A stretch of DNA of 64,000 bases from Terriglobia bacterium (GTDB taxonomy: Bacteria > Acidobacteriota > Terriglobia > Bryobacterales > Bryobacteraceae). The notes beneath the pieces are model-generated. The model worked only from the letters and a program-made list of their open reading frames with translations, was not told the DNA's origin and made no database searches. Within the stretch, counting starts at the first letter, position 1, and each line of letters opens with the position of its first letter. This document shows positions 35,424 to 58,414 of the stretch, one piece after another. The stretch lies in assembly GCA_963768095.1 (NCBI GenBank), contig CAVYGT010000002.1, positions 1,438,294 to 1,502,293 on the forward strand, in the 5' to 3' direction. A program made the translations under genes and the position numbers.

Positions 35424-35465
35424 CTTACTACGGCGGTGCTGCCAAGGCGCTTTAGAGCCTCAATC

Positions 35466-38400
35466 ATGATTTTTCGCCGGGGAGCGCTTGCCTTTCTCAC
35501 CTTCTACGCAACTGCTGTCTTCGCGCAGACCACGCAAGGCCTGATTTCAGGCCAGTTAGTCAACTCTGTCACCGGACGGCCGATCGCCGGCGCGAACGTC
35601 CTCTATTCGAGTTCGCTGAGCAATCTCGCAGGCGCCTCGCAAAGCGATTCGAGCGGATATTATTACCTGCCCTTGCTCTCTCCAGGCTTCTATCAGATTC
35701 GCGTGAACGCCGAGGGCTTCCAATCGCAAGAGGTTCAGGAAATCGAGCTGACCGTGGCCGCGCGCATCGAGCTGGACTTCCGGCTCCGCCCGCTCAGCGA
35801 CGTCTGGGAATCCGGCCAGTACAACAGCGTTTTCCTTCCCGGCTCCAAGACCATTGTCACGTTCTACGGTCCGGACGTGGATCCCAGCAAGACCGGTTCC
35901 TTTGAGGCACAAAAGGGCCGGCGCGCCCCGCTGGAATCCACGGTCTCCCAGGTGATCGACTCCGGCGAAATCAACAATCTTCCTTTGGAGGGCCGGGATG
36001 TTTACACCATGCTGGTCACGCAGCCCGGTGTTACTTCTGACGCCGCGCTGGGCCGTGGCCTCGGGCTCTCGGTCAACGGGCAGCGGCCCTCGGCGTCGAA
36101 TTTTCTGCTGGACGGGGTCGAGAACAACAACTATCTGATCACTGGGCCGCTGAATACCCTGCCGCCCGAGGCGATTGAGGAGTATCGCATCTCCACCAAC
36201 AACTTTTCGGCCGAGTATGGCCGTACTTCCGGCTTCCTGGCGAACGCGATCACTCGCTCCGGAAGCAACGTGTTTCACGGCGTCGCGTATTTCTATCTGA
36301 TGAACGACGTCTTGAACGCGAATGGCTTTCAGGAAAACGCCCAGGGCGCGCCGCGTTCGCCGGATAAACAAGCCGAACCTGGCTACGTCTTCGGTGGGCC
36401 CATACTCAAAGACCGGCTCTTTTTCCTCAGCACATTCGATTACTTTCATAACGGCAGCCACGACGATCCCGCTACGTTCGTAGTGCCATCCACCAGCTTT
36501 GTATCGCAGTACACCGGGCCGGGGTCCCTTGCCCGCCAATTGCTGACCGAATTTCCTGCCCCGGCCGCAACCAACGGCAACCTACCTGTGGCTCAATTGA
36601 CGCTCGCACCGCCCGTGACCATCAATCGCGACCAGGCCATCGAGCGCTTGGACTACAACACGCCCAGCCAGAAGGACCGCATCATGGGGCGAGTTCTGTT
36701 CAATCAGCTGGGCCGTCCGGATTTCATTTGGTCGCCGTACAAGGATTTCGTTTCGGCTTTGAACGAATACACGGTGGAAGGCGCGATCAGTTACGTTCGG
36801 CTGTTCCGTCCGAATCTGACCAACGAAGCGCGATTCAGCGGGAGCGTCGACAACCTGCACTGGGACCGCCCGCATCCTGAAATCCCGACGCTCGCCGCGG
36901 CCGCAACCTATTTGCCGGGCGACGTCACCTTGCCCGGCAGTCCGGCGTTTTACGCCTACAAAAACGTCAACAAGAGCTGGGAAATGCTGGACAACCTGAT
37001 CTGGTCCCATGGCCAGCATCTTGTAACTTTCGGCGCAGGCCTGCTGTTGCGATCTTCCAGCGGCTATCTGACCGCCGGGCAAGCGGGCGAGTACCTTTTC
37101 CCCAGTATTCTTTCATTCGCTCTTGGCCAGCCGCTCGGTCCGCAACAACCGGTTTACTACGAGGCGCCCATCGATCGCTCGGCGCTCCCGAATCTGCAAC
37201 TGCCGGACTTCAACCGCAGCTACGGCTATGCACAGTACTTCCTGTTCGCGCAAGACACCTACAAGATCACCCGACGGCTTACCGTAAACTACGGGCTCCG
37301 ATATGAATTTTACGGTGGACCGCAAAACACGGGAGCCACTAAGGACGAGTTGGTTCAGCTTGGCTCCGGCGCGACTCTGGCTCAACAGCTTGTAGGTGCA
37401 TCCTTAACCCAACCCGGCGCGGGCGACGAGCAACTCTTCCGCTCGGACAAAGGCGATTTTGCCCTACGCCTGGGCGCGGCTTACGACCTCTTCGGCACCG
37501 GCCGCACACTGCTGCGCGGGGCTTACGGAACCTTCTACGATCGCCCATTTGACAATCTCTGGGAAAATGTCCGGAATAACAACTTCATCCTTCCGGTGCT
37601 CACGCTCCCGGCTGGACCAGTAAACTATCTGGCGCCCGTTGCGGACCAGTTGGCTACATTCCGTGGCCAAAAAATTCCGAGCGCATTTCCGGACCTGACC
37701 CTGGTCGATCCCAACCTCCGCAGCGGCTACGCGCGCAGTTATTTTGCCGGCGTACAGCAGAGCGTCACCGCGAATTTCACACTGGAAGTGAACGCTCTCG
37801 GCTCTTACGGCCGGCAGTTGATTACCACCGACATTATCAATCGCGATTTCTCGACCCTCGCCGGCCGATATAATCCCAACCTTCCCGACATCGCCTACCG
37901 CGCCAACCAGGGCTTCTCGGACTACAACGCGCTGACGGCGGTGGCGCGCTACCGCACCGGGCGGGGAATTGTGCAGGCCTCCTACACCTGGAGCCACAGC
38001 ATCGATAATCAGAGCGATCCGCTGATCGGCGATTTCTTCAATCTGGATTTCACCGCCATTCAGACTGCTTCGCCATCGATCGGGCGCGCTGCATTTTCCG
38101 AACAGTTCAATCCCTATGCCGACCGCGCCAGTTCGGACTTCGATCAGCGCCAAAATCTGGTGATTTTCTCGTACTGGAATCTGCCGTCTCCATTCCCCAA
38201 TTCGAAGTGGGGACTGCTGCTGCACGATTGGACCGCCGGAGAATTGGCCGCGTTCCGCAGCGGGTTCCCATTCACCGTGTTTGGCACGACGAACGTCGTT
38301 CCGGGCGGCGGCCTCATCATCCTGAACCGAGTCAACATCGTCAATCCGAATGAGACGGTGTTGGCCAATCCGATTCCCGTTCCGGGCGGCGAGCAGTTGC

Positions 38401-38744
38401 TGAATCCAGCGGACTTCGCGGAAGCAGCCCCGAGCGTGCTCGGCAACGAAGGGCGCAATGCTTTCACCGGCCCAGGATTCTATAGCCTCGACCTTTCGCT
38501 GGCCCGTGCCTTCCCGTTGCGGTGGCTGGGTGAAGGCGGACGTGTGCGCTTCCGCGCCGATTTCTTCAACGTGCTCAATCACGCCAATCTTGGCAATCCC
38601 GACGCGCTCTTCACTTCTCCGGTATCGTCGACGTTTGGAATCGCAACCTTCGGCCGGCAAGGTTTTCAGTCCGGATTCCCGGCCCTTAGCCCGCTTAACG
38701 AGACCCCACGTCAGATTCAGCTCAGCGTAAGAGTTGAGTTCTAG
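35466..38744 (+). CDS. TonB-dependent receptor with carboxypeptidase-regulatory-like N-domain
   Basis: Signal peptide MIFRRGALAFLTFYATAVFAQ, CarboxypepD_reg-like ISGQLVNSVTGRPIAGANV, a plug region NNLPLEGRDVYTMLVTQPGV, and a C-terminal beta-barrel ending ..QIQLSVRVEF. Confidence 0.9.
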   Translation: MIFRRGALAFLTFYATAVFAQTTQGLISGQLVNSVTGRPIAGANVLYSSSLSNLAGASQSDSSGYYYLPLLSPGFYQIRVNAEGFQSQEVQEIELTVAARIELDFRLRPLSDVWESGQYNSVFLPGSKTIVTFYGPDVDPSKTGSFEAQKGRRAPLESTVSQVIDSGEINNLPLEGRDVYTMLVTQPGVTSDAALGRGLGLSVNGQRPSASNFLLDGVENNNYLITGPLNTLPPEAIEEYRISTNNFSAEYGRTSGFLANAITRSGSNVFHGVAYFYLMNDVLNANGFQENAQGAPRSPDKQAEPGYVFGGPILKDRLFFLSTFDYFHNGSHDDPATFVVPSTSFVSQYTGPGSLARQLLTEFPAPAATNGNLPVAQLTLAPPVTINRDQAIERLDYNTPSQKDRIMGRVLFNQLGRPDFIWSPYKDFVSALNEYTVEGAISYVRLFRPNLTNEARFSGSVDNLHWDRPHPEIPTLAAAATYLPGDVTLPGSPAFYAYKNVNKSWEMLDNLIWSHGQHLVTFGAGLLLRSSSGYLTAGQAGEYLFPSILSFALGQPLGPQQPVYYEAPIDRSALPNLQLPDFNRSYGYAQYFLFAQDTYKITRRLTVNYGLRYEFYGGPQNTGATKDELVQLGSGATLAQQLVGASLTQPGAGDEQLFRSDKGDFALRLGAAYDLFGTGRTLLRGAYGTFYDRPFDNLWENVRNNNFILPVLTLPAGPVNYLAPVADQLATFRGQKIPSAFPDLTLVDPNLRSGYARSYFAGVQQSVTANFTLEVNALGSYGRQLITTDIINRDFSTLAGRYNPNLPDIAYRANQGFSDYNALTAVARYRTGRGIVQASYTWSHSIDNQSDPLIGDFFNLDFTAIQTASPSIGRAAFSEQFNPYADRASSDFDQRQNLVIFSYWNLPSPFPNSKWGLLLHDWTAGELAAFRSGFPFTVFGTTNVVPGGGLIILNRVNIVNPNETVLANPIPVPGGEQLLNPADFAEAAPSVLGNEGRNAFTGPGFYSLDLSLARAFPLRWLGEGGRVRFRADFFNVLNHANLGNPDALFTSPVSSTFGIATFGRQGFQSGFPALSPLNETPRQIQLSVRVEF

Positions 38745-38756
38745 GCCGAACCGCTG

Positions 38757-38805
38757 GCGTTCGCATGAGCGCGAACGCGGCACGCACGAGTGCGTGCGCC
38801 ACAGG
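38757..38805 (+). repeat. 49-nt double-hairpin intergenic element, copy 1
   Basis: Sequence GCGTTCGCATGAGCGCGAACGC GGCACGCACGAGTGCGTGCGCCACAGG. It is 45/49 identical to the reverse complement of 58366..58414. It lies between the receptor stop (38744) and the PQQ dehydrogenase start (38833). Confidence 0.8.
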
Positions 38806-38832: not shown

Positions 38833-40935
38833 ATGTATCTCAAGTTCCCAGTTTGCGCCCTAGCTCTATGCACGATGCCGATCGCCTTCGCCCAATGGCA
38901 CGCCAAGGACACCGAGTGGCCCAGCTACAACGCCGACCTCACCGGCTCGCGCTATCGCCCGCTCGATCAGATTAGCGCCTCCAACTTCAACAAGCTTGAA
39001 GTGGCGTGGCGCTTCAAGACCGACAGCATCGGCAACCGCCCGGAATACAAGCTGGAAGGCACTCCTCTCATGGTCAACGGCGTCCTGTATGCGACTGCGG
39101 GCTCCCGCCGCGCGGCAGTCGCGCTCGATGCGGCCACTGGTGAATTGCTTTGGGTCCACGGCGAGCATGAAGGCGAACGCGGCGCGTCCGCTCCCCGCCA
39201 GCTCTCCGGACGCGGCCTGGCCTACTGGTCCGACGGCAAGGAAGAGCGGATTTTCTACGTAACCCCGGGTTTCCGCCTGGTCGCCCTGGATGCCAAGACC
39301 GGCGCGCTCATCCCGTCCTTCGGAAAGAACGGCATGGTGGATCTGAAACTCGACGACGATCAAACCATCTCCGCGTGGAATGACAAAGGCGAATGGGTGC
39401 CCGATCTGGTGCACGGTGAAATCGGAATCCAGTCGGCTCCCGTAGTCGCGAAAGATACCATCCTGATCGGCGCGGCGTTCCGCGAAGGCATGACGCCCAA
39501 GAGCATGCGCAACAACAAAGGCTACGTGCGCGGCTTCGACGTTCGCACTGGAAAGCGCCTCTGGACCTTCCACACTATTCCGAAGAAGGGCGAGTTCGGC
39601 TACGACACCTGGCAGAACGGATCCGCCGAGTATACCGGCAACACTGGCGTATGGGCGCAGATCACCGTCGACGAACAGCTCGGCCTCGTATATCTTCCGG
39701 TGGAATCGCCCACCGGCGACTACTACGGCGGCCATCGTCCCGGCAACGATCTGTTCGGCGAGAGCCTGGTCTGCGTCGATCTGAAAACCGGCCAGCGCAA
39801 GTGGCATTACCAACTGGTCCATCACCCGCTGTGGGACATGGACATTTCTTCCGCGCCTTTGCTTGGCGACATCAATGTCAACGGCAAGGCCATCAAAGCG
39901 GTCGCGGTTCCAACCAAGCAAGGCTTTCTGTACGTCTTCGACCGCGTCACGGGACAGCCCGTCTGGCCCATCGAAGAGCGCCCGGTAGAAAAAGGCAACG
40001 TGCCGGGCGAGTGGTACGCCCCGACGCAGCCGTTCCCCACCAAGCCGCCGGCCTACGCCCGCAACGGCGTCACGCCCGACGTGCTGATCGATTTCACGCC
40101 TGCGCTCCACGATCAGGCCTTGACCAACGTAGCGAAGTTTAAGATTGGTCCGGTGTTCACGCCCCCGGTCGAAAGCAAGCTCGACGGGCCGTATTCGACG
40201 CTCACGCTCGGCACCGCCGCGGGCGGTACCAACTGGCCCGGCGGCTCCTACGATCCCGAAACTCACACGGTTTACGTGTTTGCGTGCAACGCCTGCCTGG
40301 TTCCGATCGGCGTGGTGGAATCGCCCAAGGAAGTTTCCGACATGAAGTATGTCATGGGAATGGCCGGGCAAAAGGTGCAGATCGCGCGCGGCCCGGGCGA
40401 GAACTCCGGCGCAGATTCTCCACGCACTCCTCGCGCATCGACCCCGCCTCCCGCGCCGCCGCCCGCCGCCAGCCCAGGCCCCAATATCTACAGTCTTCTG
40501 AGCGTGCGCGGCCTGCCGCTCATCAAGCCACCGTATGGAACCATCTCGGCCATCAATCTCGACCAAGGCGAAATTGTCTGGCAGGTCGCCCACGGCGACA
40601 CTCCCGACGGCATCCGCAACAATCCCGCGCTTAAGGGGCTCGACATTCCCAAGACCGGCCAGTCGGATTACAACGTCGGCACCCTGGTCACGAAAACTCT
40701 CGTGATCGCCGGCGACGGCCAAGTCACAACCACTGCCGCTCATCCACGCGGCGCGATGCTGCGCGCTTACGATAAGACCAACGGCCAGCAGGTCGGCGCG
40801 GTCTGGATGCCTGCGCCTCAGAGTGGATCGCCCATGACTTACATGCTGAATGGCAAGCAATACATCGTCGTGGCCATCAGCGGCGGCGCGTATTCGGGCG
40901 AATACGTCGCGTTCTCGCTTCCGTCGGCCGAGTAG
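38833..40935 (+). CDS. secreted PQQ-dependent dehydrogenase (8-bladed beta-propeller), paralog A1
   Basis: Signal peptide MYLKFPVCALALCTMPIAFAQ. Repeated A/D-x-D-x-x-T-G-x-x-x-W blade motifs: ALDAATGELLWVH, ALDAKTGAL, GFDVRTGKRLWTF, CVDLKTGQRKWHYQLVHHPLWDMD, FDRVTGQPVWPIEE, AINLDQGEIVWQ. A GGAG sits 7 nt upstream of the ATG at 38833. Confidence 0.85.
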   Translation: MYLKFPVCALALCTMPIAFAQWHAKDTEWPSYNADLTGSRYRPLDQISASNFNKLEVAWRFKTDSIGNRPEYKLEGTPLMVNGVLYATAGSRRAAVALDAATGELLWVHGEHEGERGASAPRQLSGRGLAYWSDGKEERIFYVTPGFRLVALDAKTGALIPSFGKNGMVDLKLDDDQTISAWNDKGEWVPDLVHGEIGIQSAPVVAKDTILIGAAFREGMTPKSMRNNKGYVRGFDVRTGKRLWTFHTIPKKGEFGYDTWQNGSAEYTGNTGVWAQITVDEQLGLVYLPVESPTGDYYGGHRPGNDLFGESLVCVDLKTGQRKWHYQLVHHPLWDMDISSAPLLGDINVNGKAIKAVAVPTKQGFLYVFDRVTGQPVWPIEERPVEKGNVPGEWYAPTQPFPTKPPAYARNGVTPDVLIDFTPALHDQALTNVAKFKIGPVFTPPVESKLDGPYSTLTLGTAAGGTNWPGGSYDPETHTVYVFACNACLVPIGVVESPKEVSDMKYVMGMAGQKVQIARGPGENSGADSPRTPRASTPPPAPPPAASPGPNIYSLLSVRGLPLIKPPYGTISAINLDQGEIVWQVAHGDTPDGIRNNPALKGLDIPKTGQSDYNVGTLVTKTLVIAGDGQVTTTAAHPRGAMLRAYDKTNGQQVGAVWMPAPQSGSPMTYMLNGKQYIVVAISGGAYSGEYVAFSLPSAE

Positions 40936-41010
40936 TCCGAGCGCCGCTCCAAGCGGCTTTGATTCGCGCTATCATCTCTCGCAGGCCAAAAGGCCACGAG
41001 GAGAGAGCGC

Positions 41011-43125
41011 ATGAATTCGACCGGCGCCCTGGCCGCAGTAACTGTTCTCGCGTGCTTCACGCCGCTAGCGTCCGCGCAGTGGCATCCAAAAGATACCGAA
41101 TGGTGGAGTTACAACGCCGATGTGACCGGTAGCCGCTACCGGCCGCTGGATCAAATCAACGCCTCCAACTTCAACCAGCTGGAAGTCGCCTGGCGCTTCA
41201 AGACCGACAGTATCGGAAATCGCCCGGAATACAAATTGGAAGGCACGCCCCTCATGGTCAACGGCGTGGTCTACGCGACAGCGGGCTCGCGCCGCGCCGC
41301 CGTTGCATTGGACGCGGCCACCGGCGAGTTGCTGTGGGTACATGGCGAGCATGAAGGCGAGCGGGGCGCCTCTGCTCCACGCGCTCTATCGGGCCGGGGC
41401 CTAGCCTATTGGTCAGACGGCAAGGAAGAGCGCATCATCTATGTCACCGGCGGCTACAGACTGGTGGCGCTTGATGCCAAGACCGGCTCGCTCATCCCGT
41501 CCTTCGGCAAAAACGGCATCGTCGATCTCAAGCTCGACGACGACCAAAACATCTCCGCCTGGAACGAGAAAGGCGAATGGGTACCCGATCTGGTGCACGG
41601 CGAGATCGGACTGCAATCGGCGCCGGTTGTCGCCAAAGACACCATCCTCGTCGGCGCAGCGTTCCGCGAGGGCATGACTCCCAAGAGCATGCGCAACAAC
41701 AAGGGCTATGTGCGCGGCTTCGACGTCCGCACCGGCAAGCGCCTGTGGACCTTCCACACCATCCCGATGAAAGGTGAGACCGGCTATGACACCTGGCTCA
41801 ATGGATCGGCCGAGTACACCGGAAACACCGGCGTGTGGAACCAAATCACCGTGGACGAACAACTCGGCCTCGCGTATCTGCCAGTGGAATCGCCCACCGG
41901 CGATCTCTACGGCGGCCACCGCCCCGGCAATAATCTGTTCGGCGAGAGCCTGGTCTGCGTGGATCTGAAGACCGGCAAACTCAAATGGTATTTCCAGATG
42001 GTCCACCATCCGCTGTGGGACATGGACGCCTCGGCCGCCCCGCTGCTGATGGACATCAACGTCGATGGCAAACCGATCAAAGCGGTCGCGCTACCGTCGA
42101 AACAGGCCTTGCTGTACGTATTTGATCGCGCCACGGGCAAACCCGTGTGGCCCATCGAGGAGCGCCCAGTCGAGAAGGGCGAAGTTCCCGGCGAGTGGTA
42201 TTCACCGACGCAGCCTTTCCCCACCAAGCCGCCCGCCTACGCACGCAACGGCTTCACGCCTGACGTTCTGGTTGACTTCACGCCCGCAATTCGCGATCAG
42301 GCGCTGACCCAGGCGTCGCGATACAAAATGGGTCCGGTCTTCACGCCGCCAGTCGTCAGCAATGCCGGTGGCCCTCTCAGCACATTGAATCTCGGCGGCC
42401 CGCTCGGTGGCACCAACTGGCCCGGCGGCTCATTCGATCCTGAAACGCATACCGTCTACGTCTACGCCTGCAATTCATGTATCTACCCGACCGGCCTGGT
42501 TCCCTCGCCGAAGGAAGTCTCGGATATGAGATACGTCTCCGGCAACGATGGCCAGCGAATCCAAATCGCCAGAGGACCAGGGGAAGCGGGTGGCGCCGAT
42601 CAGCCGATGGCTCAACGGCCTCCGACTCCGCCAGCTGGTGGCCGCGGCGGCGCACCCGCGGGGGGCGGCCTCGGCGTGCTCAGCGGCCTCACGGTACAGG
42701 GGCTGCCAATCGTCAAGCCGCCTTATGGAACGATCTCGGCCATAAATCTGGACCGGGGCGAGATCGTCTGGCAAACGCCCCACGGCGACACGCCGGACTC
42801 GGTCCGCAACAACCCCGCGCTGAAGGGCCTCAACATCCCGAAAACCGGCCAGTCCACCTACAATGTCGGGACACTCGTAACGAAGAGCCTGGTGATCGCC
42901 GGCGACGGGCAAATCACCACCACTCCAGAACATCCCCGCGGCGCCATGTTGCGGGCCTACGACAAATCCACCGGAAAAGAAGTCGGCGCAGTCTGGATGC
43001 CGGCGCCTCAGAGCGGCTCTCCCATGACCTATGCGCTCAACGGCAGGCAATACATCGTGGTCGCGGTCAGCGGCGGCAACTATTCGGGCGAGTACCTCGC
43101 CTTCAGTCTTCCATCCACGGATTAA
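41011..43125 (+). CDS. secreted PQQ-dependent dehydrogenase, paralog A2
   Basis: Has the same motif series as A1, with long identical peptide runs, and a signal peptide ..VLACFTPLASAQ. Confidence 0.85.
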   Translation: MNSTGALAAVTVLACFTPLASAQWHPKDTEWWSYNADVTGSRYRPLDQINASNFNQLEVAWRFKTDSIGNRPEYKLEGTPLMVNGVVYATAGSRRAAVALDAATGELLWVHGEHEGERGASAPRALSGRGLAYWSDGKEERIIYVTGGYRLVALDAKTGSLIPSFGKNGIVDLKLDDDQNISAWNEKGEWVPDLVHGEIGLQSAPVVAKDTILVGAAFREGMTPKSMRNNKGYVRGFDVRTGKRLWTFHTIPMKGETGYDTWLNGSAEYTGNTGVWNQITVDEQLGLAYLPVESPTGDLYGGHRPGNNLFGESLVCVDLKTGKLKWYFQMVHHPLWDMDASAAPLLMDINVDGKPIKAVALPSKQALLYVFDRATGKPVWPIEERPVEKGEVPGEWYSPTQPFPTKPPAYARNGFTPDVLVDFTPAIRDQALTQASRYKMGPVFTPPVVSNAGGPLSTLNLGGPLGGTNWPGGSFDPETHTVYVYACNSCIYPTGLVPSPKEVSDMRYVSGNDGQRIQIARGPGEAGGADQPMAQRPPTPPAGGRGGAPAGGGLGVLSGLTVQGLPIVKPPYGTISAINLDRGEIVWQTPHGDTPDSVRNNPALKGLNIPKTGQSTYNVGTLVTKSLVIAGDGQITTTPEHPRGAMLRAYDKSTGKEVGAVWMPAPQSGSPMTYALNGRQYIVVAVSGGNYSGEYLAFSLPSTD

Positions 43126-43288
43126 CGTGATCCACGGTAACCGCGGCCACACTTCTTACGCCCTTAGTCTGAATAGCGTTCAATTGCAGGCGTTCCCGGC
43201 CGTCTTACGGTCATAAGCAAGGACGCATTCATCTTTGATATAGTCGTCTATCCGGGTTTCGATCCGGCTCAATACGACGAGAGGTGAC

Positions 43289-43732
43289 ATGAACTTTAAG
43301 ATTTCAGCTCTGGCAATCATCGGCCTGGCCGCTTTGGGCGCGCTTTATTCTAATTTGCACGCTCAGTCGACGCGTTCGGTCTGGGATGGCGTGTACACTC
43401 AGGACCAAGCTAAACAGGGCCAGGCCGCTTACAACGAGAGTTGCTCGTCTTGCCACGGCGACACACTGATGGGTGGCGAATCGGCGCCGGCGCTGGCTGG
43501 CGGAGAGTTCCTTTCCAACTGGAACGGCCTGACACTGGGCGATTTGTTCGAAAGAATTCGTACTACCATGCCTCAAAACCGCCCCGGCAGCCTCAGCCGC
43601 GAGAAGAACACCTTGATCCTGGCCTACCTGTTGAGCGTCAGCCAGTTTCCGGCCGGTAAGACCGATCTTCCGCAGCAGACCGAGGTGCTCAAAGAGATTC
43701 GGATCGATGCTTCGAAGCCTGACAAAAAGTGA
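43289..43732 (+). CDS. secreted mono-haem cytochrome c, paralog 1
   Basis: Signal peptide, a single CSSCHGD haem site, and a conserved LSNWNGLTLGDLFERIRTTMP region with the probable axial Met. Confidence 0.85.
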   Translation: MNFKISALAIIGLAALGALYSNLHAQSTRSVWDGVYTQDQAKQGQAAYNESCSSCHGDTLMGGESAPALAGGEFLSNWNGLTLGDLFERIRTTMPQNRPGSLSREKNTLILAYLLSVSQFPAGKTDLPQQTEVLKEIRIDASKPDKK

Positions 43733-43768
43733 GAACCGCGGCCTGTCACAAATCGCAGCCCGCTTGGC

Positions 43769-44212
43769 ATGAAACTTAGAATCGCAACCCTGACGACCAT
43801 CGGCCTGGCGGCTTTCGGCGCCCTATTTTCCAATTTGCGCGCGGACGCCACGCGCTCGGTTTGGGATGGCGTCTATACAGAAGATCAAGCCAAGCAAGGT
43901 CAGCCCCTTTACAACGAGAATTGTTCATCGTGTCACGGCGACACACTCATCGGTCAGGACGTGGCTCCCGCGCTAGTGGGCGGTGAGTTTCTTTCCAACT
44001 GGGATGGCTTGACTTTAGGCGACTTATTCGAAAGAATCCGTACCACCATGCCGGCCAGCAAGCCTGGAAGCCTGGGCAAGGAAAAGAACGCCGCGATTCT
44101 GGCGTACATATTGAGCGTCAACCAGTTTCCGGCGGGGAAGATCGCGCTTCCGCAACAGAAAGAAGTTCTAGACGAAATTAAGATCAGTGCATCGAAACCA
44201 GAAAAGAAGTAG
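43769..44212 (+). CDS. secreted mono-haem cytochrome c, paralog 2
   Basis: 147 aa, collinear with paralog 1, with CSSCHGD and LSNWDGLTLGDLFERIRTTMP. Confidence 0.85.
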   Translation: MKLRIATLTTIGLAAFGALFSNLRADATRSVWDGVYTEDQAKQGQPLYNENCSSCHGDTLIGQDVAPALVGGEFLSNWDGLTLGDLFERIRTTMPASKPGSLGKEKNAAILAYILSVNQFPAGKIALPQQKEVLDEIKISASKPEKK

Positions 44213-44278
44213 CAAATCCGGCGGCGTGGCCTAGGTTGGTTCGCCTGCCGGTAACAGAACAAACTGAAGGAGTGAACC

Positions 44279-46432
44279 ATGCGTAGGAAAACGAGCAACG
44301 TTCTGCCGTTGACCGCTCTGTTCGCCGTGTTGGGGCTGACTTGGATTGCGATCAACGTATCGGGTCAAGGCGCGGGATACGTCCCTTCGACGGCCAAAGG
44401 CGACTGGCCCTATTACACCGCCGATCTGAAGGGCAGCAAGTATGTCCCGCTCGATCAGATCAATGCCTCTAACTTCAACAAGCTCGAAGTAGCTTGGCGT
44501 TTCAAGACCGATAACCTCGGCCCGCGCCCCGAGTACAAACTGGAAGGCACCCCACTGGCTATCAACGGTACGCTTTACACCACCGGTGGCACGCGCCGAT
44601 CCATCATCTCGATGGACGGTAAGACTGGCGAGGTGAATTGGACCTACAGCTTCCGTGAAGGCAATCGCGCCGCCATCGCCCCGCGTCAATTGTCCGGACG
44701 CGGCGTAGCATATTGGACCGATGGGCGCGGCGACGACCGCGTGGTGTTCGTCAGCACCGGCTATCGCCTGGTGGAACTGAACGCCCACACCGGCGCCGTA
44801 CTCACCACCTTCGGGGAGCACGGCATGGTGGACCTGAAAGTCGGCATGGTGAAGGGCGCCGGCGATCAGATCGATCTGGAAACGGGTGAAGCCGGGCTCC
44901 ACGCGACGCCGCTGGTTGTGAAGGACGTGGTTATCGTGGGCTCTTCCTTCAAGGAGGGCATGACGCCCGTTACGCACAACAACACCAAGGGCATGGTCCG
45001 CGCTTATGATGTCCACACCGGCAAACAATTGTGGGCCTTTAACACCATCCCACGCCCCGGCCAGTTCGGTAATGACACCTGGGAGAACGGCTCCTGGGCT
45101 CAGAATGGCAACACTGGCGTTTGGACCCAGATGACCGTGGACGAGGATCTCGGCCTGGTTTACCTGCCGGTGGAAGATCCCACCTCCGATTACTACGGCG
45201 GACACCGGCCTGGCAATGACCTGTTCGGCGACAGCCTGGTGTGCGTTGATCTGAAAACGGGCCAGCGCAAGTGGCACTACCAGATCGTGCATCATCCCAT
45301 CTGGGACTTCGATCTTTCCTCTGCCCCACTCCTGGTCGACATCAACGTCAATGGCCGTGCCATCAAAGCCGTTGCGCTGCCGACCAAGCAGGCTTGGCTG
45401 TACACCTTCGATCGCGTGACTGGTCAGCCGGTGTGGCCCATCGAGGAGAAGCCCGTGCAGCAGTCGGACGTGCCCGGCGAGAAAACTTCGCCCACGCAGC
45501 CCTTCCCGACCAAGCCGCCCAATTACGCCCGCAACTTCATCAAAGTTCCGGACGACCTCATCGACTTCACGCCTGAAATGCGCGCTCAGGCTAAAGACCT
45601 GCTGTCGCGCTATCGCGTTACGGACCGGCCGTTCAATCCGCCGCTGGTTGGCGATGAGAAGGGCCTGCTCGGCGCTATCAACGTCGGCAATGCCGGTGGT
45701 GGAACCAACTGGCCCGGCGCCGGTTTCGATCCGGAGACGCACATCGTTTACGCTCAGGCGGCCAACTCTTCGGCAGCGGGTCTTTCGCTCCGTAAACCGC
45801 CGCAGGGATTCTCCGACCTGAGCTATTTCTCCGGCCGCAACGATCAGCCTTTCCGCGAAGCGCTCGGACCGGGCTTCGGAACCGCTGCGGATTCCCCGCT
45901 CGCCAAGACCGTCGGCCGTCCGCAAACGCCTCCGCCCGCACCCGCTGCTGGACGTGGTGGACGCGGCGCCGCGGCCGCTGGTGGTGGCGGATTCGGCCTG
46001 AACGTGGACGGTCTGCCGATCATGAAACCGCCCTACGGCGTCATCTCGGCGATTGACCTCGACAAGGGCGACCTCAAGTGGCAAGTGCCCTACGGCGAGA
46101 CGCCCGACAACGTCCGCAGAATCCTCACTGAGAAAGGGATCAAGTTTGGCAATCTCGGACAAAACGGCAGCGTCGGATTGCTGGTCACTAAGACTCTGGT
46201 GATTCTCGGCGACAATCAAGTTACCAATCCGGGAACGCATCCGCGCGGGGCGATGCTGCGCGCCTACGACAAGCAAACCGGTAAAGAGGTCGGCGCGGTA
46301 TGGATGCCGGCTCCTCAGAGCGGCTCGCCGATGTCCTACCTGGCGGGCGGCAAGCAGTATATCGTGATCGCCGTTAGCGGCGGCGCATATTCGGGTGAGT
46401 ACCTGGCGTTCAGCCTGCCCGAAAACGAGTAA
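44279..46432 (+). CDS. secreted PQQ-dependent dehydrogenase, paralog B1
   Basis: Signal-anchor-like N-terminus. Blade motifs SMDGKTGEVNW, ELNAHTGAV, AYDVHTGKQLWAF, CVDLKTGQRKWHYQIVHHPIWDFD and FDRVTGQPVWPIEE. An AAGGAG lies upstream of the ATG. Confidence 0.85.
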   Translation: MRRKTSNVLPLTALFAVLGLTWIAINVSGQGAGYVPSTAKGDWPYYTADLKGSKYVPLDQINASNFNKLEVAWRFKTDNLGPRPEYKLEGTPLAINGTLYTTGGTRRSIISMDGKTGEVNWTYSFREGNRAAIAPRQLSGRGVAYWTDGRGDDRVVFVSTGYRLVELNAHTGAVLTTFGEHGMVDLKVGMVKGAGDQIDLETGEAGLHATPLVVKDVVIVGSSFKEGMTPVTHNNTKGMVRAYDVHTGKQLWAFNTIPRPGQFGNDTWENGSWAQNGNTGVWTQMTVDEDLGLVYLPVEDPTSDYYGGHRPGNDLFGDSLVCVDLKTGQRKWHYQIVHHPIWDFDLSSAPLLVDINVNGRAIKAVALPTKQAWLYTFDRVTGQPVWPIEEKPVQQSDVPGEKTSPTQPFPTKPPNYARNFIKVPDDLIDFTPEMRAQAKDLLSRYRVTDRPFNPPLVGDEKGLLGAINVGNAGGGTNWPGAGFDPETHIVYAQAANSSAAGLSLRKPPQGFSDLSYFSGRNDQPFREALGPGFGTAADSPLAKTVGRPQTPPPAPAAGRGGRGAAAAGGGGFGLNVDGLPIMKPPYGVISAIDLDKGDLKWQVPYGETPDNVRRILTEKGIKFGNLGQNGSVGLLVTKTLVILGDNQVTNPGTHPRGAMLRAYDKQTGKEVGAVWMPAPQSGSPMSYLAGGKQYIVIAVSGGAYSGEYLAFSLPENE

Positions 46433-46445
46433 GTATGTGGGTGCC

Positions 46446-46468
46446 GTGTCCCCACCCGATGGGGACAC
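46446..46468 (+). other. intra-cluster stem-loop between PQQ-DH B1 and B2
   Basis: GTGTCCCC ACCCGAT GGGGACAC forms an 8-bp stem with a 7-nt loop, 14 nt after the B1 stop. There is no strong U-tract (it is followed by AGATTTCTG). Confidence 0.5.
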
Positions 46469-46550
46469 AGATTTCTGATGTATGACCGGGCTGCTCAACG
46501 AATGTCTCGAGTGGCCCGGTTCAAGAAAAAGTTAGGGAGAAACCAACGAC

Positions 46551-48701
46551 ATGGATCGAAGCAAGACTAAGGGAAGGAAAGCCCTGTGGTTGACCGCATT
46601 GCCGGCTGCCGCAGGGTTGTTATGGATCACAGCAGGCGCATTGGGCCAAGGCGGTGGCTATTCGCCATCCACGAAGAAAGGCGACTGGCCCTATTACACC
46701 GCCGACGAAAAGGGCTCCAAGTATTCGCCGCTGGATCAAATCAATGCGTCGAATTTCAACAAGCTCGAACCAGCATGGCGCTTCAAGACCGACAACTTCG
46801 GCACGCGGCCCGAGTTCAAATTGGAAGGTACGCCGCTAGCGATTAACGGTGTTCTGTACACCACCGCCGGCACGCGCCGCGACGTAATCGCGCTGGATGG
46901 AAAAACCGGCGAACTGATGTGGTCGCACAGCATGCGCGAAGGAAATCGCGCCGCCATCGCGCCTCGCCAGCTCTCCGGCCGTGGCGTCGCGTTCTGGACG
47001 GATGGCCGAGGCGACGACCGCGTCATTTATGTCACCACCGGCTATCGTCTGGTTGAGCTGAATGCCAAGACCGGCCAGGAAATCAGCTCGTTCGGCAAAG
47101 ATGGCATGGTCGACCTCAAGGTCGGCATGGTCACCGGCACCGGCCAGCAGATCGATCTCGAAACCGGTGAGGCCGGCCTGCACTCCACGCCTCTGGTGGT
47201 GAAGGATGTCGTGATCGTCGGCTCCTCTTTCAAAGAAGGTATGACCGTCGTCACGCACAACAACACCAAGGGCATGGTCCGCGCCTATGATGTCCACACC
47301 GGTAAACAACTGTGGGCGTTCAACACCATTCCACGTAAGGGCGAGTTCGGTTACGATACCTGGGAAAACGGCTCCGCGGACGTGAACGGCAACACCGGCG
47401 TGTGGACCCAGATGACCGTGGACGAAGAACTCGGCCTCGTGTATCTCCCGGTTGAGTCTCCCACCTCCGACTATTACGGCGGCGAACGCCCGGGCAACAA
47501 CCTCTATGGCGAAAGCCTGGTCTGCGTGGATCTGAAGACCGGCCAACGCAAGTGGTACTTCCAGATTGTGCACCACCCGGTTTGGGACTACGATTTGTCG
47601 TCCGCTCCGATCCTGGCCGACATCAACGTCAACGGTCGAGCCGTCAAAGCCGTCGCGGTGCCGAGCAAAGAGGCCTTCCTCTATGTGTTCGATCGCGTGA
47701 CCGGCAAACCTATTTGGCCCATCGAAGAGCGGCCGGTGGCGCAATCCGACGTGCCTGGCGAAAAGACTTCAAAGACGCAGCCTTTCCCGACCAAGCCGCC
47801 GGCTTATGCCCGCAACTTCATCAAAGTTCCGGACGACTTGCTCGACTTCACGCCCGAGATGCGGGCACAGGCCAAGGACATCGTCTCGCGCTACCGCGTG
47901 GAAGGGATGTTCACGCCACCCGTGGTCGGCGATCCGAACGGCAAGTGGCTGGCCGGGTTGAACCTCGGCAACGCCAGCGGCGGCACCAACTGGCCCGGCG
48001 CCGGCTACGATCCGGAAACGCACATCGTGTACGCGCAGGCCAACCAGTCCGCCGTCACGCCGATTTCGCTGCGCACTCCGCCTGCCGGATTCAGCGACAT
48101 CCATTACGTTGCCGGGCGCAATGACCAGCAGTTCCGCGTCGCGGAAGGCCCTGGTTTCGGAAGCGCAGCCGATGCGCCTCAACAGAAGCGGGCGCCTGCA
48201 CCTCCGCCTGCGGCAGCACCAGCCGCCGGCCGTGGAGGCCGTGGTGGCGGTGGTGGCGGCGGCTTCGGCCTGAGCGTCGATGGCCTGTCCATCGTCAAAC
48301 CGCCCTACGGCGTGATCTCGGCCATCAATCTGGATCGAGGAGATCTGCAGTGGCAAGTGCCTTACGGCGAGACCGCCGACAACGTCCGCGACATCCTGAC
48401 TCAACGCGGCATCAAGTTCGACAACCTCGGTCAGGGCGGAAGCGTGGGCCTGCTGGTAACCAAAACGCTCGTCGTTCTCGGCGACACCTTGGTAACTTCC
48501 AAGACCCATCCCCGTGGCGCCATGCTGCGCGCTTACAACAAAGCCACCGGCAAGGAAGTTGGCGCTGTGTGGATGCCCGCGCCCCAAAGCGGATCGCCCA
48601 TGACCTATCAGGCCGGTGGCAAGCAGTACATCATCGTGTCTGTCAGCGGCGGCAATTACTCAGGCGAGTACATCGCCTACGCGCTGCCCGAAGCAGAATA
48701 A
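46551..48701 (+). CDS. secreted PQQ-dependent dehydrogenase, paralog B2
   Basis: Collinear with B1: ALDGKTGELMW, ELNAKTGQE, AYDVHTGKQLWAF, CVDLKTGQRKWYFQIVHHPVWDYD and FDRVTGKPIWPIEE. Confidence 0.85.
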   Translation: MDRSKTKGRKALWLTALPAAAGLLWITAGALGQGGGYSPSTKKGDWPYYTADEKGSKYSPLDQINASNFNKLEPAWRFKTDNFGTRPEFKLEGTPLAINGVLYTTAGTRRDVIALDGKTGELMWSHSMREGNRAAIAPRQLSGRGVAFWTDGRGDDRVIYVTTGYRLVELNAKTGQEISSFGKDGMVDLKVGMVTGTGQQIDLETGEAGLHSTPLVVKDVVIVGSSFKEGMTVVTHNNTKGMVRAYDVHTGKQLWAFNTIPRKGEFGYDTWENGSADVNGNTGVWTQMTVDEELGLVYLPVESPTSDYYGGERPGNNLYGESLVCVDLKTGQRKWYFQIVHHPVWDYDLSSAPILADINVNGRAVKAVAVPSKEAFLYVFDRVTGKPIWPIEERPVAQSDVPGEKTSKTQPFPTKPPAYARNFIKVPDDLLDFTPEMRAQAKDIVSRYRVEGMFTPPVVGDPNGKWLAGLNLGNASGGTNWPGAGYDPETHIVYAQANQSAVTPISLRTPPAGFSDIHYVAGRNDQQFRVAEGPGFGSAADAPQQKRAPAPPPAAAPAAGRGGRGGGGGGGFGLSVDGLSIVKPPYGVISAINLDRGDLQWQVPYGETADNVRDILTQRGIKFDNLGQGGSVGLLVTKTLVVLGDTLVTSKTHPRGAMLRAYNKATGKEVGAVWMPAPQSGSPMTYQAGGKQYIIVSVSGGNYSGEYIAYALPEAE

Positions 48702-48740
48702 TAAATCGCGCAGCGCAGCTGTTTTTTGATGTTTTTCGGA

Positions 48741-48769
48741 GGGCCCGCGTCAATGGCGGGCCCTTTTTC
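48741..48769 (+). terminator. Rho-independent terminator closing the PQQ-DH/cytochrome cluster
   Basis: GGGCCCGC GTCAATG GCGGGCCC followed by TTTTTCT, 40 nt after the B2 stop. Confidence 0.8.
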
Positions 48770-48787
48770 TTGTAATCTGGAGTAGTT

Positions 48788-49363
48788 ATGATGCACGATG
48801 AAGTCTCCCGCCGCGAGTGGATGCTCGCGTCGTCTCTCGGCCTGCTGGCCGTGTGGCCCGAAGTACTCGCCGCGCAGCAGCATGCACGCCACGCTGCCGC
48901 AACACCTGGAGCCGCTTTTACCTACTTCGATCGGGCGACGGCTGCGGAAATAGAAGCTATCGCCGCGCAAATCATTCCAACCGACGAAACTCCGGGCGCG
49001 CGCGAAGCCGGCGTGATCTACTTCATTGATCATGCCTTGAGCACGTTCGACCAGGACAGCCAGGAGCACTACAAGACCGGCTTGGCGGACTTGCAGACCA
49101 AGCGCGCCGCCATGTTCCCCGGTTCCACCAGCATCGCCGCGCTCGACCCGCAACAGCAGTTGGCGCTGGTCAAATCCATCGACGGGACGCCGTTCTTTGA
49201 GACCGTGCGCACTCACACCATCATCGGATTCCTTAACAGCCCGGATGAGGGCGGAAATCGCGACTACATCGGATGGAAACTGCTCGGCATGGATCCTAAG
49301 ATGGTCTACCAGCCGCCGTTCGGCTATTATGACGCCGAAGCGCGGAAGGAGGGAACCCGATGA
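48788..49363 (+). CDS. gluconate 2-dehydrogenase subunit 3-like small subunit (Tat signal)
   Basis: Twin-arginine signal VSRREWMLASSLGLLA. Family-typical motifs IIPTDETPGAREAGVIYFID and FYDAEARKEG-type C-terminus. Its stop overlaps the downstream start (ATGA). Confidence 0.8.
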   Translation: MMHDEVSRREWMLASSLGLLAVWPEVLAAQQHARHAAATPGAAFTYFDRATAAEIEAIAAQIIPTDETPGAREAGVIYFIDHALSTFDQDSQEHYKTGLADLQTKRAAMFPGSTSIAALDPQQQLALVKSIDGTPFFETVRTHTIIGFLNSPDEGGNRDYIGWKLLGMDPKMVYQPPFGYYDAEARKEGTR

Positions 49364-51006
49364 GCCGCGCCCCCTATCGACCCAATCACCCTGTAGATTT
49401 CATCGTCGTCGGTTCGGGCGCCGCCGGCGGAGCAGTCGCCAAGGAACTCGCGGTGGCCGGCTTCGAAGTCGTGGTGCTCGAGCAGGGCCCCTACCTCCGC
49501 CCGAAGGATTTCAAACACGATGAAGTGCTGGTCCGCGACCTGCACCAGCTCACCAACGATCCCAAGCGCCAGCCGCAAACCTTTCGCAAGACCGAGAACG
49601 AAACCGCCAAAGTTCAATTCTCCGTCGGCTATGGCCGCGAAGTCGGCGGCGGTACCGTGCACTTCACCACGAACTGGTGGCGTTTGCATGAAATCGATTT
49701 CAACGAGCGCAGCCGTTTAGGCGCGGTTCCAAACTCCACTTTCGACGATTGGCCGATCACTTACCAGGATCTGGAGCCGTATTACACCAAATCCGAGCAA
49801 GACATTGGCGTCTCCGGATTGGGTGGATCGAACCCGTTCGACGCCCCGCGCTCCCAGCCCTACCCGTTGCCGCCGCTGCCGGTAAAATCTTGCGGAGTGC
49901 TCTTCGATCGCGGCGCCAAGAAGCTGGGCTGGCATTCCTTTCCTGCGCCGATGGCGATCCTTTCGCAGCAGTACAAGGGGCGGCCTGGTTGCGTGCACTG
50001 CGGCTTCTGCATGTCGTTCGGCTGCGAAGTCGGCGCCAAGTCCTCCACGCTGGCAGCCCTGATTCCGGTCGCCGAGCACACCGGCAACTGCGAAATCCGG
50101 GCTGAAGCGTACGTCAGGAAAATCGAGGTCGATGGACGCGGGCGCGTCACAGGCGCGACGTATTTCGATGCCAGCAAGCGCGAGGTTTTCCAGCGTGCCA
50201 AAGCCGTGGTGGTGTGCGCCAATGGCGTGGAATCACCGCGCCTCTTGCTGATGTCCAAATCCAACCGGTTCCCGAACGGATTGGCCAACTCCAATGGCGT
50301 GGTCGGCAAAAATCTGATGTTCGACAACGGCACCACCGCCACTGCTCTCTTCGAGCATCCACTCAATGAGTTCAAGAGCGTTCAAGTTTCGCGCGTGATC
50401 CATGATTTTTACGATTCGGACCCTAAGCGCGGCTACTACGGCGGCGCCGGCTTCGATGCGCGCTTTGCCGAGACACCCGTTCAGTTCGGATTGCGCGGGC
50501 TTCCCGGCAGCCCCCGCTGGGGCTCCGAATGGAAGAAAACGGTGGCCCACGATTTCCCGCGCATCATGAGCTCATTGAGTCACGTGACCTGCCTCCCCAT
50601 GGAAAGTAACAACGTTACTTTGGATCCCGAGCTGAAGGACGAATGGGGCCTCCCCACCCTCCGCATCACGTTCAAGAATCATCCCGACGACCTGAAAATC
50701 ATGGAGTTCATCTCGGCTCGCCAAAAGGAAATCATGGAGGCGGCCGGCGCCTCGCAGGTCTTTACGCGGCCGGTTCGGGAGGTCACCAACTCGGTGCATT
50801 TGATGGGAACCTGCCGCATGGGTAACGATCCTAAGAGCTCCGTTGTGAATCGCTACAATCGCGCGCACGACGTTCCGAACCTGTTCGTGGTGGATGGTAG
50901 CAGCATGGTGACCTCCGGGCGCCAGCAGCCCACCTGTACCATCCAGGCGCTCGGCTACTGGGCCGCCGACCACATGATCCAAGCCGCCCAGCGCGGTGAG
51001 ATCTAA
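49360..51006 (+). CDS. GMC-family FAD oxidoreductase (sugar dehydrogenase large subunit)
   Basis: FAD fold DFIVVGSGAAGGAVAKELAVAGFEVVVLEQG and C-terminal GMC motifs HLMGTCRMG and NLFVVDGSSMVTSG. Confidence 0.9.
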   Translation: MSRAPYRPNHPVDFIVVGSGAAGGAVAKELAVAGFEVVVLEQGPYLRPKDFKHDEVLVRDLHQLTNDPKRQPQTFRKTENETAKVQFSVGYGREVGGGTVHFTTNWWRLHEIDFNERSRLGAVPNSTFDDWPITYQDLEPYYTKSEQDIGVSGLGGSNPFDAPRSQPYPLPPLPVKSCGVLFDRGAKKLGWHSFPAPMAILSQQYKGRPGCVHCGFCMSFGCEVGAKSSTLAALIPVAEHTGNCEIRAEAYVRKIEVDGRGRVTGATYFDASKREVFQRAKAVVVCANGVESPRLLLMSKSNRFPNGLANSNGVVGKNLMFDNGTTATALFEHPLNEFKSVQVSRVIHDFYDSDPKRGYYGGAGFDARFAETPVQFGLRGLPGSPRWGSEWKKTVAHDFPRIMSSLSHVTCLPMESNNVTLDPELKDEWGLPTLRITFKNHPDDLKIMEFISARQKEIMEAAGASQVFTRPVREVTNSVHLMGTCRMGNDPKSSVVNRYNRAHDVPNLFVVDGSSMVTSGRQQPTCTIQALGYWAADHMIQAAQRGEI

Positions 51007-51131: not shown

Positions 51132-51252
51132 TGAAGTCGTCCTTTTCCTGGGTCTTGGCCGTTGTTCAAAATCTCTGGGACTGGCAGCCGGATTTTTTTG
51201 GTGTCCGCTAGGTGAGCCGTCCCAACCATGCGTGGCCATCAAGGAGATTGCC

Positions 51253-54798: not shown

Positions 54799-55784
54799 GC
54801 GACGCGCGCGCTCATCGCCGCCACGCGGCCGGCGCCCAGCAGCGCGGTCTTGTCGTTCGTAATCACGCGCACCGGAATGTCCCTGAGCAGCGGGCTGATG
54901 CGGCCTTTGGCTTGAAACGCGTTGAGGAACGCCGGCCCAGTCAACTTTCGAATGATCTTCGGCGCGATCCCTCCGCCGACGAACGTTCCGCCTGTCGCCA
55001 CCACTTTCAGCGCCAGATTGCCCGCCTCAGCGCCGTAAATCGACACGAAAATATCCAGCGCTTGCACGCCGAGATCCGACGTGCCCTCCAGCCCGGACTT
55101 CGCGATCGCAGCCGATGGATCGCCGTGCGCGATCGCGTCTGCTAACCAGGTGGGTTCCTCGCCGCGCCCGGTGTCGCGCAGAAAGTCATAGATATTGTGC
55201 AGCCCGGGTCCGGAAAGCACGCGCTCATAGCTGACGTGTTCGAAACGCCCCATCAGGTAACGCAGCAGCTCCATCTCCAGCTCATTGCGCGGCGCGAAAT
55301 CGACGTGGCCGCCTTCGGAGGGAAACGGACGATAACCTCCATTGGCCTCCGCGAGCAGCCCTGCTTCTCCGAGCCCCGTGCCGGCCGCGATCAAAGCGCG
55401 ATTGCCCCCCGGGATCGGGATGCCGGCATTCAACAAAACGAAATCCGATGCTTCGAGCAGAGCGATCCCATGCGCATTGGCTTCCAGATCATTGATAAGA
55501 GAAACATCCTGGATGCCCAGCTCCTCGCTGATTTGCTTCGCGCTGACTCTCCACGGCAAGTTGGTGGTTTCGACGACGCCGTCTCGCACCGCTCCCGCGA
55601 TCCCGAAGCAGGCCGCACGCGGGGCTTGGTTGTGGGTGGCGACAAATTTCCTTACGATCTCTTCCAGACCCTGGTGCTCGCGGCTGGGAAAAATCTCGAT
55701 CGCAACCGCGGTCAGCCGGTCGGGAGTGCCGTCGAAGAAAGCCAGCCGCGTGTTGGTCCCGCCAATGTCACCGCCCAGTACCAT
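54795..55784 (-). CDS. glk: glucokinase
   Basis: The N-terminal [17 protein letters not shown]-binding motif and the 329-aa length are both Glk-like. Confidence 0.9.
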
Positions 55785-57318: not shown

Positions 57319-57368
57319 TCCTAGCCTCTCTCGATCGACGAGTTATTTTCCACAATAGCCGCCGTGCG

Positions 57369-58352: not shown

Positions 58353-58365
58353 AGTTTCTTTCTCC

Positions 58366-58414
58366 CCTGTGGCGCACGCACTCGTGCGTGCCGCGTTCAC
58401 ACTCGTGTGAACGC
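58366..58414 (-). repeat. 49-nt double-hairpin intergenic element, copy 2
   Basis: The reverse complement reads GCGTTCACACGAGTGTGAACGC GGCACGCACGAGTGCGTGCGCCACAGG. It lies between the tal-pgi stop (58424) and the gnd start (58352), and abuts the gnd Shine-Dalgarno sequence. Confidence 0.8.

Follow-up and report, generated by a model that had tools for sequence, protein, structure and literature searches.

A gene array for a probable periplasmic oxidation system of soluble quinoproteins and monohaem cytochromes c in a Terriglobia bacterium

The array described here lies in a 64,000-nucleotide stretch of DNA (the window), which covers positions 1,438,294 to 1,502,293 of the forward strand of contig CAVYGT010000002.1 in the metagenome-assembled genome (MAG) of a Terriglobia bacterium of the family Bryobacteraceae (assembly GCA_963768095.1; 6.92 Mb in 12 contigs, 96.75% complete). 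Two pairs of genes for dehydrogenases of the pyrroloquinoline quinone (PQQ) type, A1–A2 and B1–B2, flank two cytochrome c genes, c1 and c2, giving the layout AA-cc-BB (Table 1). The array likely encodes a periplasmic oxidation system in which the four soluble quinoproteins hand electrons to c1 and c2. All six co-directional open reading frames (ORFs) listed by an earlier reading of the bare sequence (the original prediction) are present at the coordinates it gave. The strong terminator that it placed after B2 is also present, but its stem and T-run occupy 48738–48766 rather than 48741–48769, a shift of 3 nt. The start of A1 was assigned to the ATG at 38833, which has GGAG 7 nt upstream and opens a normal signal peptide; this start is preferred to that of a longer frame beginning at TTG 38734, which runs through the stop codon of the upstream gene and through a repeat element. 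The gaps between the six genes measure 36–163 nt, and one transcript for all of them is plausible. A small GC hairpin followed by TTTGATT (40943–40957) stands 8 nt past the A1 stop codon, possibly as a weak attenuator or RNA-stabilising hairpin within the array.

Table 1 The array and its neighbouring features in the window (DH, dehydrogenase; mGDH, membrane glucose dehydrogenase; REP, repetitive extragenic palindromic; TBDR, TonB-dependent receptor)
Feature	Position	Strand	Description
TBDR1, TonB-dependent outer-membrane receptor	35391..38744	+	CarboxypepD_reg, Plug and barrel; PF25183 E = 6e-120, PF13620, PF07715
REP-like double-hairpin repeat, TBDR1–A1 spacer	38757..38805	+	Not part of the system
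PQQ-DH A1	38833..40935	+	700 aa; Sec signal peptide; predicted soluble mGDH-like eight-bladed propeller; PF01011 E = 3.8e-175; TIGR03074 359 bits from profile position 151
PQQ-DH A2	41011..43125	+	704 aa; paralogue of A1 of old origin; His262 of E. coli Gcd replaced by Ala
Cytochrome c1	43289..43732	+	147 aa; predicted exported monohaem class I cytochrome c; CSSCH, Met94; PF13442 E = 7e-10
Cytochrome c2	43769..44212	+	147 aa; additional diverged copy, otherwise seen in MAG L021 alone
PQQ-DH B1	44279..46432	+	717 aa; signal peptide; WDFD motif; PF01011 E = 4e-168
PQQ-DH B2	46551..48701	+	716 aa; signal peptide; WDYD motif; PF01011 E = 1.2e-173
Intrinsic terminator closing the array	48738..48772	+	11-bp stem with 8 GC pairs
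Tat-signal small subunit (Gluconate_2-dh3) and GMC flavoprotein dehydrogenase	48788..51006	+	PF13618 E = 1.5e-20; PF05199, PF00732; SRREWML motif
TBDR2, second TonB-dependent receptor	51232..54798	+	PF25183 E = 9e-189
glk-zwf-gnd, back to back with the array	54795..58400	-	Pfam

The four dehydrogenases match PF01011 over its full length (positions 1–595 of 595; E = 1e-168 to 1e-175; 561–584 bits against a cut-off of 26.7), and the profile search thus keeps them within the PQQ-propeller family to which they had been assigned. Among curated families TIGR03074 (membrane glucose/quinate/shikimate dehydrogenases) fits best, with a match that spans profile positions ~150–783 only. Alignment to Escherichia coli Gcd begins at about residue 165, and that to TIGR03074 at position 149–151; the five-transmembrane (5-TM) anchor is absent, as the original prediction held, and a signal peptide of 21–33 aa precedes the propeller in its place. 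The Pfam matches of the four proteins likewise include no cytochrome family, in agreement with the predicted lack of a fused haem domain. The AlphaFold2 model of A1 (mean pLDDT (predicted local distance difference test) of 80, predicted template modelling score (pTM) 0.85) retrieved PQQ dehydrogenases as all of its top 30 Foldseek matches in the Protein Data Bank (PDB), with target template modelling scores (TMt) of 0.61–0.74 and an identity of at most 24%. The low-confidence parts of the model are the signal peptide and a low-complexity loop rich in Pro, Gly and Arg (residues 520–548, about 40390–40480 of the window; pLDDT <50), which differs in sequence and length in each paralogue. Membership in TIGR04528 (acido-empty-quinoprotein group A) was considered and rejected, as this profile gives a secondary match only (205–233 bits against a cut-off of 650); the paralogues of ~530 aa elsewhere in the genome also fall below its cut-off (522–554 bits). 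Close relatives are annotated in databases as 'quinoprotein glucose dehydrogenase', and all of the 8,000 database candidates of the enzyme subfamily that were scored had E ≤ 1e-20. Judged by sequence, the four dehydrogenases are related to membrane glucose/quinate dehydrogenase but have no anchor.

The cofactor site was compared with those of Gcd and of Gluconobacter alcohol dehydrogenase (ADH), using Gcd numbering and the functional roles that mutational work has given to the Gcd residues. All four proteins keep Trp404 (PQQ stacking), Thr424, Asp426, the HH-x-x-W motif, Asp466 (catalytic base), Asp468, Lys493, Arg266 and Glu217; in A1 the residues are D335, K362, W274, R127, E75 and E218, and the other three proteins have the corresponding residues. 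The original prediction had singled out the PQQ and Ca ligand residues for checking; in the alignment the catalytic Asp, the Lys, the PQQ-stacking Trp, the Arg and Glu contacts of PQQ and residues of the metal region are retained in all four. Gcd His262 is replaced by Ala in A2 and by Gln in the other three, and Gcd Asp354-Asn355 by Glu-Gly, the Glu matching the metal-ligand position of ADH and methanol dehydrogenase (MDH). Gcd Asp730 is not conserved (Ala, Glu, Thr and Thr in the four), and His775 falls in a four-residue deletion; both residues are linked to ubiquinone reduction. A vicinal Cys-Cys is absent, the Cys-Cys of ADH aligning with Pro-Arg or Arg-Gln. Across an alignment of 30 sequences that includes distant paralogues, the Trp, the Lys and the second Asp of the D-x-D motif are invariant, and the catalytic Asp is present in 27. 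The motif itself reads WDMD in A1 and A2, WDFD in B1 and WDYD in B2; given its presence, either Ca2+ or a lanthanide may serve as the metal of the active site.

The two cytochromes match PF13442 and PF00034 (PF13442 39.5–41.2 bits against a cut-off of 27). Their alignment displays the traits of class I monohaem cytochromes, namely C52-S-S-C55-H56, Met94 within a conserved RTTMP and an N-terminal signal peptide. No significant match to structures of cytochrome cL or c550 was obtained for c1 or c2; the best PDB matches are domains of the QcrC/CcoP type (E = 3e-7). Eighty loci, mostly from MAGs of Bryobacterales, Acidoferrales and other Terriglobia, were retrieved with A1 from a collection of species-representative genomes, and in 67 of them a c1-like gene lies directly 3' of the A-type gene. 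The genome also holds natural fusions. A GDH (glucose dehydrogenase)-like paralogue of 799 aa, C10_176915 (G000, C10:176915-179314), bears a cytochrome domain of the same family at its C-terminus, and directly after its sister C2_387163 (C2:387163-389576), overlapping it, lies a 139-aa gene whose cytochrome sequence is almost identical. C4_49649 (C4:49649-51817) has an N-terminal haem domain, and its counterpart is split into C2_504377 and C2_506004 (C2:504377-506528). By their gene structures, these two fused and split pairs within a single genome qualify as Rosetta-stone cases. The conserved pair and the fusions lend strong comparative support to the proposal, already part of the original prediction, that the stand-alone cytochromes are the likely electron acceptors. 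The loss of His775 and of the membrane anchor would fit a switch of acceptor from ubiquinone to cytochrome c.

The paralogues are well diverged. Identities are 81.3% in protein and 76.8% in DNA for A1 and A2, 78.5% and 75.5% for B1 and B2, and 74.1% and 73.6% for c1 and c2; A and B proteins share 59–62% (68.4% in DNA for A1 and B1). The paralogy of the cytochromes and the wider gap between A and B had both been recognised earlier, and the peptide runs then quoted as common to A1 and A2 and to B1 and B2 are present in the alignment. Synonymous divergence (dS) is saturated in all three pairs (1.16–1.25), as against 0.16–0.68 between this genome and the loci L021 or L018, and the ratio of nonsynonymous to synonymous divergence (dN/dS) between orthologues is 0.02–0.13. 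A2 has a dN/dS of 0.06 against its orthologues, and c2 is less constrained (0.13 against L021 c2) than c1 (0.019 against L021). Each dehydrogenase has its own orthologue group: A1 groups in the tree with G210, G217 and the upstream copy of G211, and by locus comparison with L018 and L021; A2 with the downstream copy of G211 in the tree, and also with L018 and L021; and B1 and B2 each with G217 and G211 in the tree. The B copies of G210 were excluded from the trees as frameshift-split. Because the paralogues are saturated in dS, the orthologues are low in dN/dS and the copies have separate orthologues, the duplications are old and every copy has been maintained.

Of the three local tandem duplications first proposed, the sister relationships A1/A2 and B1/B2 stand in a tree of the paralogues of this genome, whereas recent local events, and a single local duplication giving rise to A and B, do not. 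In that tree B1 and B2 join C2_1319374, C3_48285, C2_333556 and two more paralogues before they join A, and the adjacency of A and B is therefore not a simple local duplication. An identity gradient hinted that c2 is a very recent tandem copy of c1, but their dS of 1.25 exceeds the species divergence from L018 (0.5–0.7), and c2 may be either an old copy with losses or of outside origin. The original prediction had further invoked selection for substrate diversification. Divergence beside catalytic motifs is indeed found, but the data point to strong purifying selection on each copy and do not demonstrate selection to diversify. Fixed differences near these motifs are Q123A (the Gcd His262 position), Y297L, I338A and T361S from A1 to A2, and D292S, H301E and F336Y from B1 to B2; fixed differences between paralogues are concentrated in residues 400–560, as located along the sequence. 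They would fit distinct substrate ranges without proving them.

The layout varies among relatives. Most Terriglobia loci have A-c, and longer arrangements are A-c-B in G202, A-c-BB in G217 and G210, AA-c-BB in G211 and AA-c-B in L018, where the retrieved locus ends within the first B gene. The independent MAG locus L021 reads AA-cc-B up to its end within B1, with a TonB-dependent receptor (TBDR) upstream (T-A1-A2-c1-c2-B1), and the identity of its proteins to their window counterparts is 97.7% for A1, 95.2% for A2, 99.3% for c1 and 93.2% for c2. In the congener G210 (L010, G210:C11:109000-128000; 85–86% DNA identity), several ORFs stand in place of each of the A and the two B genes, owing either to genuine decay or to frameshifts from sequencing errors in this MAG.

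The genome carries about 35 PF01011 genes, of which 15 encode full-length soluble GDH-like proteins of 700 aa; many others belong to the ~530-aa methanol/ethanol family. The window contains no pqq genes, as noted before, and none were found in the whole 6.92-Mb genome. No pqqC was found, although the search proved able to detect the gene, with 12 of the phylum's 201 genomes scoring over its cut-off; no pqqE scored above cut-off. Within the order pqqC was found in four of the 81 genomes sampled, this one being among the 81; PQQ synthesis is patchy in Bryobacterales. An orthologue of the PQQ receptor PqqU was not found in the genome either; compared with E. coli PqqU, the top-scoring protein shows 27% identity, over the N-terminal third only (residues 26–267 of 700). 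This agrees with a report that, in Acidobacteria, PqqU is found in Vicinamibacteria only (PMC12124388); the same paper documents scavenging of environmental PQQ. TBDR1 was considered as a PQQ importer and is not supported: its similarity to PqqU is weak and lies over the N-terminal, plug-containing part, and a TBDR stands beside the A gene in nine of the 80 loci. Because pqqC, pqqE and PqqU were not found, PQQ is probably scavenged; alternatively, the pathway may lie in the missing 3% of the genome.

Genes for carbohydrate metabolism and for outer-membrane transport surround the array. TBDR1 precedes it here and in the four examined congener loci in which the upstream region is present (synteny comparison with G210, G211, G217, L018 and L021). 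About 52 TBDRs with the CarboxypepD_reg–Plug–barrel architecture in the whole genome match TBDR1 or TBDR2, and several have another PQQ paralogue as neighbour, as at C2:1321647-1330015 and C2:383630-387088. At the equivalent locus of G210, G211 and G217, the three congeners used for comparison, no TBDR2 was found. The unit of small subunit and GMC dehydrogenase is present in G210 and absent from the locus in G211 and G217; no cytochrome subunit was seen among the ORFs adjoining it. The genome has seven GMC genes and five Gluconate_2-dh3 small-subunit genes in total, and the GMC enzymes might also use the soluble cytochromes. On the opposite strand, glk-zwf-gnd continues into tal-tkt. The array directly abuts glk-zwf in G217 and G211, and just the small-subunit and GMC genes intervene in G210. 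This adjacency supports a sugar-related role.

The repeat in the spacer between TBDR1 and A1 is a copy of a 49/50-nt double-hairpin element that also lies at 58366-58414 on the minus strand of the window. The 50-mer is spread over both strands of the genome in at least 52 copies and its 26-nt core in at least 85, sometimes as convergent pairs, and hairpin 1 shows compensatory variants. A role as a specific regulator common to A1 and gnd was rejected on the ground that the element is a dispersed REP-like repeat of at least 52 to 85 copies.

A mechanism can be proposed from these data. The four Sec-exported soluble quinoproteins would probably oxidise sugars or related polyols brought through the outer membrane, with PQQ probably taken up from soil. 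Reduced PQQ would probably pass its electrons not to ubiquinone but to the small exported cytochromes c1 and c2, which would relay them to a terminal oxidase. The dehydrogenase–cytochrome pair A-c is taken as the ancestral unit, which in this genus has grown by old duplications and additions to A-c-B, A-c-BB and AA-c-BB and, here, to AA-cc-BB. Different substrate ranges would be the likeliest reason for keeping four copies, because every copy is under purifying selection and the copies differ beside the catalytic motifs.

Several observations weigh against this proposal. The TIGR03074 scores of the four dehydrogenases (349–363 bits) are far below the cut-off of 832.65, the anchor-less clade has no characterised member and the label 'glucose dehydrogenase' is automatic; neither a biochemical study of this TM-less GDH-like clade nor a close solved structure was found. 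Pairing with a cytochrome is not universal, as the dispersed members of the subfamily in this genome mostly stand without an adjoining cytochrome gene. A TBDR lies directly upstream in nine of the 80 wider loci, so that this adjacency holds in this genus only. Operon status is argued from gene spacing and a single terminator, and the weak hairpin follows A1. With regard to the cofactor, the congener G207 has pqqC (G207:C2:558971-559678; 333 bits, above cut-off), and at 96.75% completeness of the genome the absence of pqq genes is not proven. The D-x-D motif, as DMD, is also present in E. coli Gcd and by itself cannot decide between Ca/Mg and a lanthanide within the clade.

This last point bears on the suggestion that the enzymes depend on lanthanides, which would place the array in rare-earth-dependent sugar or alcohol oxidation, its extra copies serving to switch metal or substrate as in XoxF/MxaF and PedH/PedE. 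We consider it a tentative possibility, on balance somewhat unlikely. It draws on the D-x-D motif of all four proteins, with a second Asp that does not vary in the 30 homologues, on the Glu at the MDH/ADH metal-ligand position and on surveys that predict lanthanide binding for both TM-less and TM-bearing PQQ-GDH clades (PMC11996626; bioRxiv 10.64898/2026.07.10.737718). Since all four paralogues carry the motif, the array contains no Ca/lanthanide pair like PedE/PedH. No lanthanide uptake genes were seen in the window, although none were searched for, and no GDH-type enzyme is known to require a lanthanide. E. coli Gcd, which works with Ca or Mg in vitro, shares D-M-D, so the motif does not discriminate; because of its presence there, lanthanide use is possible and not indicated.

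That the proteins are instead 'empty' homologues, which no longer use PQQ and have another role (for example, as binding proteins) or another cofactor, is very improbable. Such a reading would account for the failure to find pqqC, pqqE and PqqU, for the rarity of pqqC across the order and for the secondary matches to the NCBIfam group of that name. The scores show, however, that the proteins are not members of that group, and they keep the stacking Trp, the catalytic Asp, the Lys, the Arg and the residues of the metal region under strong purifying selection; a redox function is also implied by the natural fusions and by the conservation of a cytochrome c partner. E. coli provides a precedent for a functional apo-quinoprotein in an organism without PQQ of its own, and scavenging is documented (PMC12124388). 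Mis-assembly of fewer genes into several copies, conceivable for a MAG in 12 contigs, is extremely improbable: the copies are just 74–77% identical in DNA, a divergence too large for one gene copied in assembly, other species have a separate orthologue of each, and the independent MAG L021 shares the order A1-A2-c1-c2-B1. The periplasmic oxidation system outlined above remains the preferred reading of the array.

Terriglobia, Bryobacterales included, rank among the most abundant bacteria of soils, and the enzyme subfamily has thousands of database members. One dehydrogenase and one 147-aa cytochrome make a testable unit, and the paralogue series could help to work out the periplasmic substrates, metal and cofactor source of an organism with ~35 quinoprotein genes but no recognisable PQQ pathway. 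A wider proposal, which we put forward as speculation and hold to be rather unlikely, is that the A-c pair represents an uncharacterised class of soluble mGDH-derived quinoproteins with a dedicated cytochrome c in place of ubiquinone, a lanthanide site and PQQ scavenged by an unknown import route, which would carry the main periplasmic sugar oxidation of soil Terriglobia. If true, it would extend rare-earth biochemistry from alcohols to sugars.

Among known systems, E. coli Gcd (P15877) and its family TIGR03074 provide the best propeller family match, and the window proteins are 30–33% identical to Gcd. Trp404, Thr424, Asp466, Asp468, Lys493 and HH-x-x-WD-x-D are common to both, neither has a vicinal Cys-Cys, and E. 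coli too lacks PQQ synthesis. In contrast to Gcd, the window proteins have a cleavable signal peptide instead of the 5-TM anchor, lack His775 and Asp730, replace His262 by Gln or Ala and Asp354-Asn355 by Glu-Gly, carry the additional Pro/Gly/Arg-rich loop and have cytochrome c, not ubiquinone, as their likely acceptor. The best solved structural matches are the type II quinohaemoprotein ADHs (1KB0, 1KV9 and 1YIQ) and subunit I of Gluconobacter ADH (8GY2), with Foldseek E-values of 2e-33 to 6e-29. The electron path from PQQ to haem c proposed here resembles that of the type II enzymes, and C10_176915 has their architecture of a propeller and a C-terminal cytochrome; the window proteins differ in belonging to the GDH-like rather than the ADH clade, with 20–24% identity and neither a fused haem nor the Cys-Cys disulfide.

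The gene pairs XoxF–XoxG, MxaFI–cytochrome cL and ExaA/PedH–cytochrome c550 likewise set a soluble periplasmic PQQ dehydrogenase beside the gene of its own small monohaem cytochrome c acceptor. Those dehydrogenases belong to another propeller clade (TIGR03075), and c1 and c2 are not significantly like cL or c550; as a further difference from the XoxF and MxaFI systems, no gene of the MxaJ/XoxJ type was seen among the ORFs of the array. Further counterparts are the putative TM-less PQQ-GDH groups 1b and 2, which share the TM-less GDH-like propeller and D-x-D. In the surveys that describe them (Voutsinos et al., ISME J 2025, PMC11996626; bioRxiv 10.64898/2026.07.10.737718), such eight-bladed propellers are predicted to bind lanthanides and are common in soil phyla including Acidobacteria, with many PQQ dehydrogenase copies per acidobacterial genome; monohaem cytochromes are commonly found beside eight-bladed PQQ genes (bioRxiv 10.64898/2026.07.10.737718). 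The surveys contain no biochemistry, and neither the A-c pair nor the AA-cc-BB array is mentioned in the sections consulted. At survey level, then, the TM-less GDH-like clade with its D-x-D motif is already known, and what is added here is the widely conserved dehydrogenase–cytochrome pair, the fusion evidence and the series of layouts within one genus, which refine the existing knowledge and overturn none of it.

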